Shown here in pieces: positions 2,462 through 51,179 of a DNA stretch of 64,000 bases (its first letter is position 1; each line of letters opens with the position of its first letter). A program made the position numbers and the translations under genes. Location: assembly GCF_055900595.2 (NCBI RefSeq), contig NZ_CM148325.1. The stretch is one strand, 5' to 3'. Below the pieces are notes generated by a model, which was given only the letters and a program-made list of their open reading frames with translations, did not search any database and was not told where the DNA came from.

Positions 2462-2869
2462 ATGAACGAGAAAACTTTAGGTCAACGAATTAGAGAAAGA
2501 CGCAAACAGGTTGGTTTAAGTCAAAACGATTTAAGCAAAGCTGCTGGCGTATCTGGCTCATCAATTTCACTATGGGAAAGCGACCATACAGCCCCGCGCG
2601 GGCAAAATTTGCATCGCCTGGCTGAGGTATTGCAATGTTCACCAACTTGGATACTGTTTGGTGACGAGGATAAAACACCAGATCCACCAGTTGCACTCAA
2701 CAGCGCCTTAGACTTATCGGAAGATGAGTTGGAGATGTTGCGATTGTATCGCGCACTTCCAAAATCAGAGCAGCAAGCACAAATCAGCGAACTCCGTGCC
2801 CGCGTTGAGAATTTTAATCGCCTATTCACCGAGCTACTAGAAGCTCGCAAACGTAACAAACATCAATAA
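2462..2869 (+). CDS. CI-like phage repressor, XRE-family HTH, no S24 peptidase domain
   Basis: HTH motif GLSQNDLSKAAGVSGSSISLWE; 135 aa; C-terminal helical region only; divergent from cro-like gene. Confidence 0.65.
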   Translation: MNEKTLGQRIRERRKQVGLSQNDLSKAAGVSGSSISLWESDHTAPRGQNLHRLAEVLQCSPTWILFGDEDKTPDPPVALNSALDLSEDELEMLRLYRALPKSEQQAQISELRARVENFNRLFTELLEARKRNKHQ

Positions 2870-2931
2870 CCCCCCTTCACAAATTTTAAAGCCTTACATT
2901 TCAATGTATTGGCTTTATTTTGCATTAAATA

Positions 2932-2982
2932 TTGAGTTTTCTAATCAAAACACTTGACCAATTTTCATGAGAAAACTAAATT
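2932..2982 (+). promoter_or_regulatory. Candidate PL-like promoter with operator (OL-like)
   Basis: TTGAGTTTTCT at 2932-2942 repeats the OR motif; -35 TTGACC 2954-2959, 17-bp spacer, -10 TAAATT 2977-2982; inverted repeat AGTTTTCT (2935-2942) / AGAAAACT (2970-2977). Confidence 0.35.
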
Positions 2983-3063
2983 ACCATCCATCAAGACACC
3001 GCACGGTGTTCTCAGCAAACAGTTCCGCTACCCCGGCGTTAAGGGGAAACAGAGGATTTCTCA

Positions 3064-3420
3064 GTGGGCGAAGTCAAACATCAGAATGGAAGGCATCCCG
3101 GGATCGGCAAAGAAGCAGCAATGGCGCTTTATATTGACATCAGCGCCATTGCCGGACAGGTAAGAATTATCAGAGCGGTAACTAAGCGGTATGTGCCTTT
3201 ACTTCAGAAAGGCTCCGGTGATTACACCGAAGATATTGTCAACGATTTCCTCATCGAATTGCGAGGACTCATCTTCAGTTACAAGGTGACCACAATTTTT
3301 GCAGATGGCTCCCGCGAAACTGTCAGAGCCCTGCGGCTTAAAGGATGTGTCGAAGACTTCGCCACCACATTCTGGGCAAGAAAACTTGATTGTATTCATA
3401 ACCAATTTCCTCTCGGGTAA
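3064..3420 (+). CDS. Hypothetical protein, first ORF downstream of candidate PL (N-gene position); mutually exclusive with the antisense ORF 3199-3399
   Basis: GTG start with AGAGGA RBS 7 nt upstream; 118 aa; orientation fits the rightward early operon; no recognisable family. Confidence 0.35.
   Translation: MGEVKHQNGRHPGIGKEAAMALYIDISAIAGQVRIIRAVTKRYVPLLQKGSGDYTEDIVNDFLIELRGLIFSYKVTTIFADGSRETVRALRLKGCVEDFATTFWARKLDCIHNQFPLG
3199..3399 (-). CDS. Small zinc-ribbon protein (CPECGG...CKNCGH), candidate moron; mutually exclusive with 3064-3420
   Basis: ATG at 3399 with AGAGGA RBS 8 nt upstream; two CxxC pairs 17 residues apart; 66 aa. Confidence 0.4.
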   Translation of the reverse strand: MNTIKFSCPECGGEVFDTSFKPQGSDSFAGAICKNCGHLVTEDESSQFDEEIVDNIFGVITGAFLK

Positions 3421-4016
3421 CAGACCCCTCAGAGGATACCACCTCGCCTGACGTGGTTAAAAGCAGGCACACAACACGAAAGCGCACGGCGAGGTAGCTG
3501 GTTCATATATAGCCTGTCGTTAAATTTTCGTCGACCGTGCGCTTCCGGTTGTGGCACTCCGCGAAATGGCGCGGCGGTAAGCATGGCGGGGTTCCCTTCC
3601 CCTTGAGGACACCGGGTTGTCAGGTTGACCATGCGCCTGAGTGACAACCCCGCTGCAACGCCCTCTGTTATCAATTTTCTGGTGACGTTTGGCGGTATCA
3701 GTTTTACTCCGTGACTGCTCTGCCGCCCTTTTTAAAGTGAATTTTGTGATGTGGTGAATGCGGCTCAGCGCACGCGGAACAGTTAAAACCAAAAACAGAG
3801 TTATGGGTGGATTCTCTGTATCCGGCGTTAATTGTTAACTGGTTAACGTCACCTGGAGGCACCTGGCACCGCATCAACAAAGTTCACTTCGGTGATGAAA
3901 GGTAAGAGAAAATGTTGAATGTAGCTATTGAAAACCAGTACGGGTGGAATTATAGTGCACCTGCACCTCATAAAACGGGTGCCGGGCGTGGAAACCCGAA
4001 AGTTACTCGAGCGCAT

Positions 4017-4039
4017 AACCGCGCCGAAGCGGTTTTTTT
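4017..4039 (+). terminator. Candidate rho-independent terminator upstream of the Rha gene
   Basis: AACCGC-GCCGAA-GCGGTT hairpin followed by TTTTT. Confidence 0.4.
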
Positions 4040-4208
4040 ATGCGTAATGCACAGCCACATTCAGATAATGGTGGGGCGTGCAGGGCAGCTGCAAGGCTGG
4101 CCGGGTTCTCGAGTGACCGGTATTTCCACCCCTGTACGTCTCGCCACCCTTATGGTCGTGGAAAGCCTCGGTGGTGAGTTAATTAACTTAACACTTGAGG
4201 ATGCCATC

Positions 4209-4760
4209 ATGGCTACTACCCTTACCCTTTCTCACCCTGACGTAACCATTGAAAATGGTCGCGCTGTCACTACGTCTATTGCGATCGCAGAATTCTTCGG
4301 CAAGCAGCATCACCATGTTGTTCAAAAAATAGAGGCCCTCGAATGTTCTGAACGCTTTTTAACCAGCAACTTTTCGCGGGTTAAATTCGAGCACCGTGGC
4401 AATACCTACAATGCCTACCAAATCACCAAAAACGGCTTCGTTTTCCTGGTGATGGGCTTCACCGGCAAAAAGGCCGCTGCATTCAAGGAAGCCTACATTG
4501 CCGAGTTCGACCGCATGGAGGAAGAACTGCGCCGGAATAACACCACACCCGCTGACAAAATAATCCCGGGTGATGGCCGCACCCTGGTTATCCGCTTCGA
4601 CGAACACGGCTACATCAAATTCACCGAAACCGTTCCTGATGGCGCACTGGTCTGTACTCTGGATACTTTCCGTTTTTATCTGGAAAAGCAGGGATGGACT
4701 CTCATAAACCGGGGCGCAATTAAAAATATGACCGTCGAGCAGTTGCTGAGTATTAAATAG
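4209..4760 (+). CDS. Phage regulatory protein, Rha family (antirepressor-like)
   Basis: N-terminus TTSIAIAEFFGKQHHHVVQKI matches Rha-domain signature; GAGGA RBS before ATG 4209; in-frame ORF is open upstream to 3912, so the start is uncertain. Confidence 0.6.
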   Translation: MATTLTLSHPDVTIENGRAVTTSIAIAEFFGKQHHHVVQKIEALECSERFLTSNFSRVKFEHRGNTYNAYQITKNGFVFLVMGFTGKKAAAFKEAYIAEFDRMEEELRRNNTTPADKIIPGDGRTLVIRFDEHGYIKFTETVPDGALVCTLDTFRFYLEKQGWTLINRGAIKNMTVEQLLSIK

Positions 4761-4805
4761 TTTTCTGGAATTTCCTTCATATCACAAATTATTAAGGAGA
4801 TTATT

Positions 4806-5027
4806 ATGATTGCTCATCACTTCGGAACCGATGAAATACCACGCCAGTGCGTCACTCCCGGCGATTACGTTATTTACGAAGGCCGGACATATGTTGCATC
4901 GGCAAACAATATCGAAAAGCAAAAACTTTATATCCGTGATTTCACTACAAAAACATGCATTACTGACCGCATGATTAAAGTCTTCCTCGGTCGTGATGGT
5001 TTACCTGTAAAGGCGGAGGCATGGTGA
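4806..5027 (+). CDS. Hypothetical small phage protein
   Basis: ATG preceded by AAGGAG at 7-nt spacing; 73 aa; no recognisable family. Confidence 0.55.
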
Positions 5028-7664: not shown

Positions 7665-7913
7665 ATGGCAAGACTTATTCTGCTCACTGAGTGGGCAAAA
7701 GAGGAATTCAGTGAACCGGTCCCTAGTCCGGGTACGTTAAGTAAATACGCTAAAGCCGGAATGATATTTCCTCTCCCCAAAAAAGTAGGAAGGCACTGGC
7801 GAGTGGATCCACGCGCTCGCTTTGTCGGAATGGTAAACAAGCCGGAGGTGATCGCCACAGATCACCCTGCTTTGAAGAGGATACTGGAAGATGGCGCGCC
7901 CGCGAAAATATAA
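7665..7913 (+). CDS. xis: Excisionase (lambda Xis-like)
   Basis: 82-aa ORF overlapping the int start; LTEW...IFPLPKKVGRHWRV resembles lambda Xis. Confidence 0.55.
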   Translation: MARLILLTEWAKEEFSEPVPSPGTLSKYAKAGMIFPLPKKVGRHWRVDPRARFVGMVNKPEVIATDHPALKRILEDGAPAKI

Positions 7914-9021
7914 AACCGATGTTCCGGGTTTATCTCCGTATTTTGACAAAAGAAATAACAAAGTTTACTGGCGTTACAGGCATCCCATCACAGGTAAAAA
8001 TCATGGACTCGGCAGTATTGACCAGAAACTGGCGGAAACCATTGCAGCAGAAGCGAACAGCCGTCTTGCCAGACAACAAATGGAGCAAATGCTCAGTCTG
8101 CAGGAGAAAATTATTAGTGATACCGGCGGCGCATCAACCGTTTCCATTTTTCTGAATAATTACAGAAAAATTCAACAGGAAAGATATGAGAACGGAGAGA
8201 TCAAACTCAGCACGCTGAAGCAAAAAGCGGCTCCTCTCAGGGTGTTTGATGAACGTTTTGGAGCCAGGCCGCTAGATGCCATAACCGTAAAAGATGTGGT
8301 ATCGGTGCTGGAAGAATACAAGGCAAAGGGACATAACAGAATGGGACAAATTTTCAGGAAGGTATTGATCGATGTTTTCCGGGAGGCTCAACAAACGGGT
8401 GATGTTCCGCCAGGCTTTAACCCGGCTGAATCGGCAAAAAAACCGCAAGTGCGGATATCAAGACAGCGACTGACTTTTGATGAGTGGATGATGATTTATA
8501 ACGCAGCGGAAAAGGATGGTTACTTTTTACAGCGCGGCATGCTGCTGGCACTGATGACGGGCCAGCGTCTTTCGGATATTTGCAAAATGCAGTTTTCGGA
8601 TATCCGGGATGGTTACCTTCATGTCGAACAGCAAAAAACAGGAGCCCGGATAGCCATTCCTCTGGCTCTGCGTTGCGACAAATTAAATCTTACCCTGGGT
8701 GACGTGGTGTCATCCTGTCGTGATTACATCCTTAGTCCGTGGTTATTGCACCATCATCACGCTAAGGGGATGGGTAAGCGCGGCGGGATGGTTAAACCAG
8801 CAACATTAACAGTCGCATTTAAAAAAGCCCGGGATTCTGTGGATTACAACTGGCGTGCTAATGGCACGCCACCCTCTTTCCATGAGCAAAGATCTTTATC
8901 AGAACGATTGTTCAGAGAACAGGGAATTGATACCAAAATTTTGCTGGGCCATTCGAATCAAAAAATGACCGATATTTACAACGACGCACGCGGTAAAGAG
9001 TGGAAAAAACTGGTTATTTGA
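7891..9021 (+). CDS. int: Tyrosine recombinase, lambda-family integrase
   Basis: 376 aa; conserved R...HxxR...Y catalytic region (GQRLSDICKMQFSDI, FHEQRSLSERLF, LLGHSNQKMTDIY) similar to lambda Int. Confidence 0.85.
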   Translation: MARPRKYKTDVPGLSPYFDKRNNKVYWRYRHPITGKNHGLGSIDQKLAETIAAEANSRLARQQMEQMLSLQEKIISDTGGASTVSIFLNNYRKIQQERYENGEIKLSTLKQKAAPLRVFDERFGARPLDAITVKDVVSVLEEYKAKGHNRMGQIFRKVLIDVFREAQQTGDVPPGFNPAESAKKPQVRISRQRLTFDEWMMIYNAAEKDGYFLQRGMLLALMTGQRLSDICKMQFSDIRDGYLHVEQQKTGARIAIPLALRCDKLNLTLGDVVSSCRDYILSPWLLHHHHAKGMGKRGGMVKPATLTVAFKKARDSVDYNWRANGTPPSFHEQRSLSERLFREQGIDTKILLGHSNQKMTDIYNDARGKEWKKLVI

Positions 9022-33903: not shown

Positions 33904-33988
<85 letters not shown>

Positions 33989-34022
33989 TCTCAAGCATTA
34001 CATCAAAATTTGAATTATCCCT

Positions 34023-34107
<85 letters not shown>

Positions 34108-34463
34108 TCACTTTCAAAAGTTCCTGAAATCCCCAACAAATCCACAATTAAATATTCTGCCCATGCGGGGAAGGATGAGAAGCTTCGACTAAGGTTCGAC
34201 TCGAGCGCCAGCGAGAGAGCGTTGCCGCAGGCAACGACCCGTAGGGCGAAGCGCGCAGCGCTGAGTAATCCTTCCCCCACCACCATCACTTTCAAAAACC
34301 CCTGTATTCTCCAACGAATCCGTAACTGAATATTCTGCCCATGCGGGGAAGGATGAGAAGCTTCGACTAAGGTTCGACTCGAGCGCCAGCGAGAGAGCAT
34401 TGCCGCAGGCAACGACCCGTAGGGCGAAGCGCGCAGCGCTGAGTAATCCTTCCCCACCACCAT
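34108..34463 (+). repeat. Two tandem 178-bp repeat units downstream of the tRNA-Tyr genes (rtT / tpr region)
   Basis: Near-identical units at 34108-34285 and 34286-34463, each ending in the tRNA 3-prime-end-like AATCCTTCCCCCACCACCA. Confidence 0.7.
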
Positions 34464-50285: not shown

Positions 50286-50577
50286 CAGTTATATCTCCTC
50301 CGATGACAGAAATCGGGGGAGATAATATAAATTCCTGCTTATTGTATTTCTTCATACTACCTGAACAGGTCGTTAATCAGAATTGCGAGCCTGTACCACA
50401 ACCTGCACGAAACCACTGCAACAGCTGTTGAAAAGCCGGAATGTACTCTTTATTGCAAACATTTCAGGGATGAAGTGAAGATGAATTGAGACGTAATATC
50501 CACACCAAGCCGGCGTTATCCGGTGAGGCGCAATGTTGCGGGGGCTTTATCCCTGGTGGCATTGGTTGCTGGAAAGA

Positions 50578-50644
50578 GAAAACCCCCCGCACGTTGAGAG
50601 GTAAAACCTGACAACAGAACGGGGGCTAATCTTGAACCATCAAC
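50578..50644 (-). ncRNA. rdl: Rdl antisense RNA, copy 1 (position inferred)
   Basis: Placed 48-114 bp upstream of the ldr ATG on the opposite strand, from recalled K-12 ldr/rdl geometry; minus-strand sequence ends in GC-rich stem (GCCCCCG...CGGGGGG) plus UUUUC. Confidence 0.45.
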
Positions 50645-50691
50645 AATTCAAGAATAGCTGCAAAATGTTGTCATTACAACAAGGCGGCTAT

Positions 50692-50799
50692 ATGACGCTC
50701 GCGCAGTTTGCCATGATTTTCTGGCACGACCTGGCGGCACCGATCCTGGCGGGGATTATTACCGCAGTGATTGTCAGCTGGTGGCGTAACCGGAAGTAA
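50692..50799 (+). CDS. ldr: Ldr type I toxin peptide, 35 aa
   Basis: MTLAQFAMIFWHDLAAPILAGIITAVIVSWWRNRK; terminator hairpin GCCGCAGG-GGTAACAG-CCTGCGGC plus T-run at about 50850-50883. Confidence 0.85.
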   Translation: MTLAQFAMIFWHDLAAPILAGIITAVIVSWWRNRK

Positions 50800-51112
50800 G
50801 GTGAAAACGGGCGTCAGGCTGCCGTGATGGCAATATGCGCCCGAAACCAGCCGCAGGGGTAACAGCCTGCGGCCTTTTTTGTCTTTATCTCTTCTGCAAG
50901 TAAATATTGGCAACCCGAGCTGGAAGCATCATCCAGAGCACTCATGAAACGACTGTAACAACTGTTGAAAAACCGGAATGCACTCTTCATTGCAAACATT
51001 TCAGGGATGAAGTGAAGATGAATTGAGACGTAGTATCCACACCAAGCCGGAGTTATCCGGTGAGGCGCAATGTTGCGGGGGCTCTATCCCTGGTGGCATT
51101 GGTTGCTGGAAA

Positions 51113-51179
51113 GAGAAAACCCCCGCACGTTGAGAGGTACAACCTGACAACAGAACGGGGGCTAATCTTGAAACCAGAC
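51113..51179 (-). ncRNA. rdl: Rdl antisense RNA, copy 2 (position inferred)
   Basis: Same relative position and near-identical sequence to copy 1. Confidence 0.45.

Follow-up and report, generated by a model that had tools for sequence, protein, structure and literature searches.

Positions 3421-4208 of the window (the whole 64,000-nucleotide stretch of DNA analysed here) raise the question of what an early-left operon encodes in about 0.8 kb that holds no confident gene. The sequence-only reading had described this interval as free of a supported protein gene, with which our analysis agrees, and had suggested a structured RNA, a phage sRNA or an antitermination element instead. An Rfam covariance-model scan found three curated RNA families, DicF (RF00039), IsrK (RF01394) and C4 (RF01695), all on the + strand and all above their gathering scores. 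The idea of a structured RNA or phage sRNA was therefore right in general; the single element that it implied gave way to a mosaic of DicF, IsrK, C4 and an STnc100-like spacer. We consider it very probable that 3421-4208 belongs to the early-left operon (dicBF-type) of a lambdoid prophage in E. coli as its RNA-encoding, non-coding part, and equally probable that it is composed of three modules, a Qin-type dicF locus, a structured spacer and an IsrK-C4 module. The mosaic model is based on family membership, structure, covariation and pairing found in this DNA, and three of the features flagged earlier were parts of Rfam families with E values of 1e-13 to 1e-16, beyond chance.

The prophage was 99.8% identical to one in E. 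coli Ch1 and its gene order was cro / DicA-like repressor / ... / Rha / kil / exonuclease / xis / int. A DicA/CI-like repressor gene (2411-2869) was found upstream of a promoter that would, by its inferred function, drive the whole leftward operon. This promoter and the kil gene bound the part of the operon considered here:

2954 to 2982, + strand: PL/dicBp-like sigma-70 promoter TTGACC-17-TAAATT, 9/12 consensus matches, same layout as dicA-dicBp in K-12 Qin
4806 to 5027, + strand: kil, Rac-type FtsZ inhibitor (NCBIfam NF008465, E 5.8e-45)

No tRNA or tmRNA was found in the region. The two minus-strand ORFs of 81 and 90 aa reported earlier exist, but the accompanying statement that no plus-strand ORF of at least 60 aa starts here did not stand, as a 282-aa ORF, named separately in that reading, begins at 3912. 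The minus-strand ORFs matched no NCBIfam family and their sole PHROG match was marginal (E 0.003), and they were rejected as genes.

The first module, 3459-3733, is a Qin-type dicF locus and takes in the RNase III stem of DicF's 190-nt precursor, and 3459-3886 aligned with the ydfC-dicF-dicB untranslated region of K-12 Qin. Its features are as follows:

3463 to 3562, + strand: extended irregular stem, about 28 bp, within the DicF precursor; in the fold 3463-3494 pairs with 3529-3562, and the block is conserved with K-12 Qin
3677 to 3733, + strand: DicF sRNA, 53-nt form; RF00039 match 3677-3728, terminator hairpin 3691-3728, U-run 3729-3733

With a gathering score of 48, the DicF match reached 76.7 bits (E 1.2e-16) and covered model positions 1-52 of 52. 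K-12 DicF gave the same 76.7 bits and showed zero differences from the window DicF in alignment A1, and therefore the same behaviour may be expected of both. The 3' terminator hairpin and U-run were present, and DicF lies in an untranslated, dicBF-type part downstream of a DicA/DicC-like switch. The terminator was read by eye and from the Rfam alignment; a simple terminator scan did not list it because its stem is bulged. The hairpin with a T-run that had been placed at about 3700-3745 is real and is this terminator, with the stem within 3691-3728 and the T-run at 3729-3733. Two inverted repeats reported earlier were also recovered, GGGTTGTCA (3614-3622) with TGACAACCC (3642-3650) and ACCTCGCC (3441-3448) with GGCGAGGT (3488-3495). 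The second pair lacks conservation in K-12 and was set aside as probably not the relevant helix; the conserved helix is that of 3463-3494 with 3529-3562.

For the processing sites, for Hfq binding and for the sign of regulation we rely on K-12, Gifsy-1, P1 and P4; the enzymes that process the RNAs, the direction in which they regulate and the physiological output of the model would likewise be those of the homologues. Transcripts from the PL/dicBp-like promoter would form the stem 3463-3562, which is the likely RNase III substrate giving the 5' end of a DicF of about 190 nt, expected by our mapping of coordinates at about 3540-3544. RNase E would then trim this species to the 53-nt DicF (3677-3733), which would end at its own terminator. 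An RNase III-dependent 190-nt and an RNase E-dependent 53-nt DicF have been published (PMC10448788), as has a 72-nt DicF with an RNase III-made 3' end (PMC5069750). The 3' end of the 72-nt form maps to about 3748, in the 5' arm of the independently predicted closing helix of the spacer. Two E. coli RNase III papers cite DicF, in their main text, as earlier work only. The mature RNA would be a trans-acting, Hfq-dependent sRNA repressing ftsZ and metabolic mRNAs.

The closest known arrangement is the dicBF operon of K-12 Qin (ydfABC-dicF-dicB). Both have a DicA/DicC-like switch followed by a promoter, a long untranslated region with an identical DicF sequence, precursor stem and terminator, and the same spacer of about 150 nt after DicF. 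In contrast to Qin, ydfA, ydfB and ydfC are missing here and are replaced by an ECs_2282/ORF118 segment, and after the spacer come isrK-C4-rha and then kil, whereas in Qin it leads directly to dicB.

The spacer between DicF and IsrK is the second module, with these features:

3734 to 3889, + strand: STnc100-like structured spacer of about 156 nt (sub-threshold Rfam match, covariation, fold)
3734 to 3756 with 3867 to 3889, + strand: closing helix of 22-28 bp, from the predicted fold
3760 to 3764 with 3770 to 3775, + strand: small hairpin that never varies
3780 to 3786, + strand: invariant CAGUUAA
about 3787 to 3823, + strand: variable insert
3824 to 3831 with 3843 to 3850, + strand: hairpin with the invariant loop UUGUUAACUGG (3832-3842)
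3852 to 3856 with 3862 to 3866, + strand: hairpin with the loop AGGCA

The STnc100 model (RF02076) matched the spacer at 32.5 bits, below the gathering score of 47, with an E value of 9.5e-5 over model positions 22-154 of 206, and its homologues at 32.9-43 bits. The spacer is therefore treated as a putative distant relative of STnc100 and not as a member. It shares with STnc100/PasD the UGGUGAAU motif, a hairpin with a GUUAAC-like loop, a CC(N)GG-AGGCA-CC(N)GG hairpin, CACC closing, a place within long phage operons and weak matches that were consistent in every homologue tested. It differs in its scores (32.5-43 against 47) and in its surroundings: DicF or tRNAs precede it and dicB, kil or tciA follow, whereas STnc100/PasD is found downstream of stx2 or in the vicinity of esterase and Fels-1 genes. 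It also differs in its long RNase III-type closing helix, which employs the DicF terminator tail.

The structure of the spacer was well supported. Among the aligned homologues 98.4% of cells were paired and nine pairs had changed on both sides; at most 1 in 500 shuffles reached any observed measure, and slid controls were 26-44% paired. The closing helix was 19-28 bp long in lambdoid and Klebsiella-type variants with differing sequences, and the fold had a z-score of -3.7. The tandem repeats GTTAAC-TG-GTTAAC (3834-3847) and CACCTGG-AGG-CACCTGG (3850-3866) pointed out earlier were present as placed and, together, the "tandem repeats" of 3830-3870 are the paired arms of covarying RNA hairpins. 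The window's own hairpin at 3852-3866 contains a U.U mismatch, at a place where 25 of 26 homologues are paired. Covariation says nothing on the small hairpin 3760-3775, since it never varies. Nor does it favour the presence or the absence of a proposed CAGUUAA/UUAACUG pseudoknot, since all seven pairs (one of them U-G) are invariant, the loop being fixed by the search pattern. A text search of the literature for the invariant motifs gave chance matches only.

A small protein encoded by the spacer would be a different explanation of its conservation. A 32-aa ORF at 3807-3905, whose K-12 counterpart extends dicB in frame at the N-terminus, is listed among the ORFs of the window, matches phrog_24763 (E 5.5e-13), is labelled partial DicB by PGAP and has an in-frame 6-nt deletion in one relative. 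The homologues point the other way: in 8 of 26 diverse sequences the open stretch lacks a start codon, the N-terminal part is unconserved and the amino-acid changes are paired such that the RNA stems are preserved. Moreover, conservation reaches some 70 nt upstream of this ORF; all codon positions are equally invariant. We regard this protein as extremely improbable and continue with the spacer as an RNA.

A context survey placed 113 of 127 spacer instances after a DicF-type terminator tail, and the ORF next downstream (n=127) was DicB-like in 53 cases as classified plus about 10 divergent ones, and Kil-like in 40. In most other phages a division-inhibitor gene of this kind lies directly 3' of the structured spacer; here IsrK-C4-rha intervenes. 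Read-through transcripts would fold the spacer into a multi-hairpin domain closed by the 22-28 bp helix, and an RNase III cut in this helix would give the 72-nt DicF its 3' end and split DicF from the downstream message. That message begins 5-25 nt later in most phages and codes for a toxic division inhibitor (dicB, kil, tciA). Going further, the spacer may represent a distinct, very widespread and unnamed RNA family, a sister of STnc100/PasD, with a role as a released RNA or in gating; we put this whole reading forward as a tentative one, possible rather than probable. If it is true, the RNase III cut would also free a stable RNA of about 125 nt with the invariant loops UUGUUAACUGG and AGGCA, and either this RNA or the structure left uncut would then gate dicB, kil or tciA, one of which is almost always next, or act in trans.

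The sequence-only reading had named an RNA antiterminator, put-like or other, among its plausible options. Acting in cis, either the region or the spacer 3734-3889 would then modify RNA polymerase such that it passes the IsrK terminator and later early-left terminators. The ORF list of the window shows no evident N-like gene following the PL-like promoter, and the spacer is a conserved structured RNA in a long phage operon with at least one intrinsic terminator downstream; true STnc100, at 75 nt downstream of stx2, is likewise part of a long phage operon (PMC12370729). As with putL and putR of HK022, a cis-encoded structured RNA lies in the early operon of a lambdoid phage without an obvious N gene. 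The put RNAs, about 70 nt long with two stem-loops, lie immediately downstream of PL or some 270 nt past the PR start (PMC9378689), whereas the spacer has about 156 nt and a 22-28 bp closing helix and starts only past the DicF terminator, at a distance of about 750 nt from the PL-like promoter. The published RNase III cut in the closing helix suits a processing site and not a polymerase-bound RNA, another difference from put, and the terminators flagged by the sequence-only reading belong to DicF and IsrK. No antiterminator RNA family was among the Rfam matches of the region, which had no sequence- or model-based link to putL or putR. In size, architecture and position the spacer thus falls outside the put RNAs as published; the comparison was made by description because the HK022 record carries no put annotation, and hence no direct alignment was available. 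The antiterminator is accordingly unsupported and, in our estimate, very improbable.

The third module, 3928-4208, is an IsrK-C4 module of the P1/P4/Gifsy-1 type, which appears as an insertion between the spacer and kil. The upstream half consists of IsrK and its promoter:

3928 to 3956, + strand: IsrK promoter TTGAAA-17-TATAGT, 10/12 consensus, best site in the region
3963 to 4039, + strand: IsrK sRNA (RF01394)
3988 to 3994, + strand: IsrK b1 site GUGGAAA
4005 to 4011, + strand: IsrK a1 site ACUCGAG
4017 to 4034, + strand: IsrK intrinsic terminator with U-run, from the terminator scan

IsrK scored 67.2 bits against a gathering score of 50 (E 1.1e-13, model positions 1-77 of 77). The -10 hexamer of its promoter ends 7 nt ahead of the first base of the match, and in the alignment ST64B-type loci carry a promoter-like pair of different sequence (TTGATT/TACACT) at the same position. 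PisrK has been demonstrated experimentally in Gifsy-1 (PMC4825925). The terminator previously noted at 4017-4039 was found (4017-4034 plus the T-run) and is IsrK's own. The full IsrK layout was present, that is, the promoter, the terminator (with putative leakiness), C4 at 4064-4151 and then Rha at 4209. The c4-a1b1 model (RF03163) reached only 24.9 bits against 46.7 at 3950-4002, a stretch that overlaps the IsrK model; the a1 and b1 pairings are present despite this sub-threshold score.

The downstream half carries the antisense RNA, its target sites and the antirepressor gene:

4064 to 4151, + strand: C4-type antisense RNA (RF01695), equivalent to Gifsy-1 STnc1160/"orf45" and P4 CI RNA
4108 to 4116, + strand: C4 a' site CUCGAGUGA, loop of hairpin 2
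4123 to 4129, + strand: C4 b' site UUUCCAC, single strand after hairpin 2
4158 to 4164, + strand: rha leader b2 site GUGGAAA, target of b'
4192 to 4201, + strand: rha leader a2 site CACUUGAGGA, target of a'
4209 to 4760, + strand: Rha-family antirepressor gene, short form, 183 aa (NCBIfam TIGR02681, Pfam Phage_pRha, codon-position signal)

C4 RNAs are excised from a precursor transcript (by RNase P in P1) and repress antirepressor expression; the C4-type antisense system, with a' and b' sites matching target sites, was reportedly described by Citron and Schuster in 1990. Here C4 scored 73.8 bits against a gathering score of 45 (E 5.4e-14, model positions 1-87 of 87) and folded at -44.3 kcal/mol into the architecture of the family. 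Site a' pairs with a2 and a1, and b' with b2 and b1. The a'/a2 duplex had -16.5 kcal/mol for cognate against -8.2 kcal/mol for non-cognate partners, and the b'/b2 duplex -9.4 against -3.6 kcal/mol. Across 10 phage loci a1/a'/a2 and b1/b'/b2 showed three-way covariation, with cognate duplexes about twice as stable as non-cognate ones. The a2 site includes the Shine-Dalgarno sequence GAGGA (4197-4201), 7 nt ahead of ATG 4209.

By analogy with these systems, the promoter at 3928-3956 would make IsrK, mostly stopping at the terminator 4017-4039, and read-through would give C4 RNA (4064-4151), whose a' and b' sites would pair with a2 and b2 on its own transcript. Since a2 covers the rha Shine-Dalgarno sequence, the antirepressor is proposed to stay untranslated when C4 is paired; the decoy sites a1 and b1 of IsrK would titrate or refold C4 and turn rha translation on, which would make Rha the regulated output of the module.

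This model takes Rha to start at ATG 4209. The Rha frame is indeed open from ATG 3912 to ATG 4209, and a 282-aa ORF from 3912 could be a real gene for Rha with an N-terminal "Ash" domain, in which case the IsrK and C4 matches would lie inside a CDS. In this prophage and in relatives the form annotated by PGAP is the 849-nt one, and Pfam Phage_ASH (PF10554) matches residues 14-108 (E 2.6e-13) and occurs also in ST64B sb41. PHROG profiles take in the extension as well. The 3912 frame is open through IsrK and C4 in 12 of 12 aligned loci, the two group-distinguishing indels upstream of ATG 4209 are of 3 nt and 12 nt, and a weak Shine-Dalgarno-like AAGAGA precedes 3912. In Gifsy-1 the equivalent region, orf45, is translated and coupled to anrP (PMC4825925).

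The pattern of substitution argues against the long form. By codon position the counts were 73/77/77 in 3963-4208 compared with 71/60/135 in rha proper, so that Phage_ASH has the profile match of a protein domain but not the third-position excess of a coding sequence; this excess begins at 4209. Changes in the variable segments follow the pattern of three-way complementary RNA sites and are not synonymous, and a promoter and an intrinsic terminator would lie inside the supposed CDS. The Rha domains of NCBIfam and Pfam begin just 3' of ATG 4209: TIGR02681 at residue 10 of the short form and Phage_pRha at residue 120 of the long form. The strong Shine-Dalgarno sequence and ATG 4209 were kept in 11 of the 12 aligned loci, with GGGG in L137. 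In addition, the annotated 385-aa ORF of ST64B type is out of frame with the upstream frame of third-position variation, and the Gifsy-1 authors found orf45 to be conserved in its nucleotide sequence and not in its amino-acid sequence (PMC4825925). The earlier doubt about the 3912 start was well placed. We consider the 282-aa gene unlikely; most likely Rha starts at ATG 4209 under antisense-RNA control and the 99-codon upstream extension is RNA, not protein. The open frame in 12 loci and the Phage_ASH match make some translation across the RNA region possible.

The arrangement resembles the isrK-orf45(STnc1160)-anrP locus of Gifsy-1 (Hershko-Shalev et al. 2016, PMC4825925), which also has its own promoter, an IsrK with a terminator (leaky in Gifsy-1) and complementary to the downstream RNA, a processed RNA of about 80 nt (STnc1160 in Gifsy-1, PMC4825925; predicted here) and then an antirepressor gene. 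ATG 4068 of the window (nt 106 from 3963) is the counterpart of the first AUG in orf45 (nt 107). In Gifsy-1 the frame closes with an overlapping AUGA. Here the equivalent of orf45 runs on into rha with no stop codon between them, as was noted for S. dysenteriae (PMC4825925). The module here also lies in the early-left operon beside DicF, whereas that of Gifsy-1 is downstream of antQ, and the a-site specificity differs.

IsrK and C4 are homologues of P4 seqA and CI RNA, and occur in lambdoid prophages too (PMC3632133). As in P1/P7 immI (c4-icd-ant) and P4 seqA-CI-seqC, the antisense RNA comes from the same transcript as its targets, and a' and b' match upstream (a1/b1, seqA) and downstream (a2/b2, seqC) sites, the downstream site covering a ribosome-binding site ahead of the antirepressor. 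Specificity types vary between phages through covarying sites. In contrast to P1, no icd-like ORF lies between C4 and the antirepressor, a2 masks the antirepressor's own Shine-Dalgarno sequence, and the antirepressor is of Rha type, not P1 Ant. The host phage here, unlike P1, P7 and P4, is lambdoid with a protein repressor of CI/DicA type, and the sub-threshold c4-a1b1 score (24.9 against 46.7 bits) is a further difference from P1/P7.

What appeared as a gap, or as an annotated 282-aa protein and a "partial DicB" pseudogene, is thus four RNA elements. The same correction of annotation probably holds for many Stx, ST64B, mEp460 and cdtI-type phage records and for Pfam Phage_ASH; if so, Phage_ASH and the long "antirepressor" ORFs of many phages would be translations of an IsrK-C4 RNA locus. 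The region is largely ordinary because it is a row of known regulatory RNA genes for division inhibitors and antirepressor control. Its main parts, DicF, IsrK and C4, were already known, and the spacer alone is possibly under-described: it is present in most E. coli genomes with a well supported structure, its assigned role goes no further than an RNase III cut mapped in 1990, and it is likely the only piece to yield something new. Since DicF, an RNase III-processed spacer and an RNA-only antirepressor switch adjoin one another, the locus may serve as a compact model of the control of prophage toxicity and induction at the RNA level.

The window corresponds to the left arm of a lambdoid prophage of E. 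coli and is 99.8% identical to a prophage of strain Ch1. The genes follow the order replication genes, YdaT-like, Cro-like (minus strand), DicA/CI-like repressor (plus strand, 2411-2869), a PL/dicBp-like promoter (2954-2982), the region 3421-4208, Rha, Kil, exonuclease, excisionase and integrase. The region had been read from the sequence alone as structured RNA or an antitermination candidate. A permissive Rfam scan over 2800-5000 found three full-length plus-strand families above their thresholds, and a scan of the whole window at gathering thresholds repeated the same three matches. Two sub-threshold matches occupy part of the interval outside these families, and no tRNA or tmRNA was found in the region. 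The finding is, for the most part, a further example of familiar RNA families in an operon of a known type.

Elements of the region (window positions)
3677-3728, plus strand: DicF, full length, 76.7 bits (threshold 48)
3740-3881: STnc100, sub-threshold, 32.5 bits (threshold 47), E 9.5e-5
3928-3956: IsrK promoter, TTGAAA-17-TATAGT, best promoter match in the region, ending 7 nt 5' of IsrK
3950-4002: c4-a1b1, sub-threshold, 24.9 bits (threshold 46.7)
3963-4039, plus strand: IsrK, full length, 67.2 bits (threshold 50)
3988-3994: site b1, within IsrK
4005-4011: site a1, within IsrK
4064-4151, plus strand: C4 antisense RNA, full length, 73.8 bits (threshold 45)
4108-4116: site a', loop of C4 hairpin 2, complementary to a1 and a2
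4123-4129: site b', C4 single strand after hairpin 2, complementary to b1 and b2
4158-4164: site b2, rha leader
4192-4201: site a2, rha leader, including the Shine-Dalgarno GAGGA, 7 nt before ATG 4209

All sequence features listed in the sequence-only reading were located, each no more than a few bases from its stated position. The GC-rich inverted repeats lie at 3614-3622/3642-3650 and 3441-3448/3488-3495. The hairpin with a T-run is the DicF terminator (stem within 3691-3728, T-run 3729-3733), and the second terminator (4017-4034 plus T-run) is the 3' end of IsrK. The minus-strand ORFs of 81 and 90 aa exist, with a single marginal match in the family libraries. Since both terminators are parts of sRNA genes, and since HK022 put RNAs (about 70 nt, two stem-loops, just 3' of early promoters; PMC9378689), compared by their published description, have no counterpart here in size, shape or position, the proposed put-like antiterminator was not borne out, and it is very improbable that the RNA following DicF acts as an antiterminator.

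In the DicF module (3459-3733), the DicF sequence showed no differences from K-12 in the alignment with the K-12 Qin dicF region. A long irregular helix 5' of DicF (3463-3494 with 3529-3562) is also conserved with K-12. DicF is excised from a polycistronic transcript by RNase III, giving a 190-nt species, and by RNase E, giving a 53-nt form (PMC10448788). A count of 190 nt back from the terminator would place the 5' end of the longer species at about 3540-3544, in the 3' strand of the helix 3463-3562. The GGGTTGTCA/TGACAACCC repeat is located in the DicF precursor, 3' of the RNase III stem and 5' of DicF itself. Just 5' of the region, two overlapping ORFs on opposite strands each have family support: a 118-aa plus-strand ORF (3064-3420; phrog_21318, E 2e-61), the strand assumed by the earlier reading, and a 68-aa CxxC minus-strand ORF (3199-3405; NCBIfam ECs_2282_CxxC, 57 bits, cutoff 37) annotated by PGAP.

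The DicF terminator is followed by a spacer of about 156 nt (3734-3889), which folds into a conserved structure. In 26 de-replicated sequences, 98.4% of cells were paired and changes on both sides occurred at 9 pairs; any given observed measure was reached in no more than 1 of 500 column shuffles, and when the partners were slid by 1-3 columns only 26-44% of cells were paired. The tandem repeats noted earlier (GTTAAC-TG-GTTAAC at 3834-3847 and CACCTGG-AGG-CACCTGG at 3850-3866) are arms of the spacer hairpins. The arms GGCGUUAA and UUAACGUC flank an invariant loop, UUGUUAACUGG, and a second hairpin has CCUGG and CCAGG around AGGCA. The window's own 3852-3866 hairpin (CCTGG…CCTGG) contains a U.U mismatch at a pair that is U-A or G-C in 25 of 26 diverse homologues. 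The closing helix (19-28 bp) is kept in lambdoid and Klebsiella-type variants despite quite different sequences, and it persists with either of two 3' flanks, dicB-type or kil/rha-type. Its energy in the window is -30.2 kcal/mol, compared with -9.8 ± 2.7 when the arms were shuffled. The published RNase III-made 3' end of a 72-nt DicF (PMC5069750) supports the helix independently, as 72 nt counted from 3677 end at about 3748, within its 5' arm. RNase III cleavage in the helix would separate DicF from the downstream message and would determine where the mRNA of the division inhibitor begins.

The STnc100 model matched every spacer homologue tested weakly (33-43 bits), so the spacer is regarded as a distant relative of the STnc100/PasD prophage sRNAs and not as a member. 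A 32-aa ORF (3807-3905) was rejected as a small protein: 8 of the 26 homologues have no start codon, and its amino-acid changes are paired, keeping the RNA stems. The "partial DicB" pseudogene annotated by PGAP in the near-identical E. coli Ch1 record (window about 3808-3882) is the 3' half of the spacer; this stretch is upstream of the K-12 dicB start, and in K-12 its frame by chance stays open as far as dicB.

The roughly 150 nt 3' of the DicF terminator are nearly invariant, even where the DicF region of relatives is much diverged. BLAST detected the spacer in E. coli/Shigella lambdoid and Stx phages, Rac-type phages, a Klebsiella phage (70% identity) and the P1-like P7 and D6. It stands immediately 5' of kil in Rac and Stx phages, immediately 5' of dicB in K-12, and after tRNA genes, upstream of tciA/terB, in P7 and D6. 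An exact-pattern scan of IMG/VR gave at least 120 loci. Among 127 sampled instances, 113 were preceded by a DicF-type terminator tail; the following ORF was classified as DicB-like in 53 (about 10 more being divergent DicB-like) and Kil-like in 40, while the IsrK-C4-Rha module followed in 8, TciA-like ORFs in 5 and other small ORFs in the remainder. Rac-type and O157-type relatives (L005 2500-2560; L012 1445-1500) carry a diverged DicF-like RNA (39.1 bits, threshold 48) directly 5' of the same conserved spacer, indicating that DicF is far more variable than the spacer after it. In the ban operon of phage P7 (L006 2304-2388), the stretch separating the annotated tRNA genes from the spacer holds a tRNA-Sec-like match (46.6 bits, threshold 47); at the equivalent place in D6, a tRNA-Ser with UGA anticodon is annotated.

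Parts of a 1.9-kb query are contained in 4,671 of 5,426 complete E. coli genomes. The recurrent short match among the sampled hits, window 3459-3886, is mostly without an annotated feature and corresponds in the K-12 Qin alignment to the long ydfC-dicB untranslated region carrying dicF. Qin homology stops at about 3886, where the IsrK-C4-Rha module starts, which makes the interval a mosaic. This combination as a whole is uncommon: coverage of the query reaches 80% or more in only 11 complete E. coli genomes, and the IsrK-C4-Rha module follows the spacer in only 8 of the 127 sampled instances. Elsewhere in the window, 33904-34462 and 50577-51179 hold a pair of tRNAs with two RtT repeats and a pair of rdlD antitoxin RNAs, which indicates passage from the prophage (int 7891-9021) into the E. 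coli chromosome.

Within the IsrK-C4-Rha module (3928-4760), C4 begins 25 nt beyond IsrK, and its predicted fold has the family architecture. The C4 sites were aligned for the window, five E. coli prophage or IMG/VR loci, ST64B, mEp460, Stx2a_1447, an Stx2c phage, an Stx1a phage and cdtI, and the three copies of each site covary phage by phage. Cognate duplexes were about twice as stable as non-cognate ones (a' with a2, -16.5 vs -8.2 kcal/mol; b' with b2, -9.4 vs -3.6; a' with a1, -13.5 vs -5.3; b' with b1, -9.4 vs -4.5). The pairing follows the same logic as the P1/P7 c4 and P4 CI immunity RNAs; the homology of IsrK and C4 to P4 seqA and CI RNA, and their presence in lambdoid prophages, had been noted previously (PMC3632133). 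The same arrangement was studied experimentally in Gifsy-1, where IsrK has a leaky terminator, read-through gives a translationally silent RNA, the "orf45" stretch is processed to an RNA of about 80 nt, STnc1160, and IsrK in trans turns on translation of the antirepressor AnrP (PMC4825925). The orf45/STnc1160 stretch is the counterpart of C4 in the window. By homology, C4 would repress rha translation, IsrK would lift the repression and Rha would act as an antirepressor; processing by RNase III and by RNase E and dependence on Hfq would likewise be expected.

PGAP annotates Rha as a 282-aa form from 3912; this plus-strand ORF starts inside the interval, contrary to the earlier claim that none of 60 aa or more does. 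From ATG 3912 the frame runs uninterrupted into the gene, as had been noted. It is open in 12 of 12 loci, and the two indels that separate groups of aligned loci upstream of ATG 4209 are of 3 and 12 nt, both points in favour of some translation. Pfam Phage_ASH (PF10554) matches residues 14-108, which are translated IsrK and C4. However, a real N-terminal domain is unlikely. Substitutions by codon position in 3963-4208 are flat (73/77/77, 12 loci), whereas rha proper has the usual third-position excess (71/60/135). The segments that vary upstream of 4209 are those of the covarying RNA sites, the supposed coding sequence contains both a promoter and a terminator, and the Rha domain models begin just 3' of 4209, whose ATG has a strong, conserved Shine-Dalgarno. 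The 385-aa ORF annotated in ST64B-type phages does not share the frame in which coding-type variation is seen upstream. We conclude that ATG 4209 is the regulated rha start and that a start at 3912 is unlikely. Ribosomes may also enter at ATG 4068. It is the counterpart of the AUG that comes first in orf45 of Gifsy-1, where orf45 is translated, with coupling to anrP; from 4068 the frame continues into rha with no intervening stop, a situation that the authors of the Gifsy-1 study described for S. dysenteriae.

Phage_ASH matched the conceptual translation of 3951-4235 (E 2.6e-13) and ST64B sb41 (L134 547-1704; E 1.5e-10). No coding signal was found in the matching IsrK-C4 region, so the family may have been built on an RNA locus. 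ORFs of 383-385 aa called antirepressor or transcriptional regulator span IsrK and C4 in ST64B (sb41), mEp460 (gp41, L135), Stx2a_1447 (Stx2a_1447_13, L136) and cdtI (gp44, L139), at about 541-1700 of each locus. In L134 682-860 it is the second codon position of the annotated frame that varies, a sign of a distinct small gene that is read in a different frame (…QELNRWFRDGRGLYVHVIRWEPE…) and stops at the IsrK -35 region.

Two points of interest go beyond the known families. The spacer is a near-ubiquitous, well-structured RNA whose only assigned role is to be cut by RNase III, and many phage "antirepressor" ORFs, together with Pfam Phage_ASH, are likely translations of an RNA locus.
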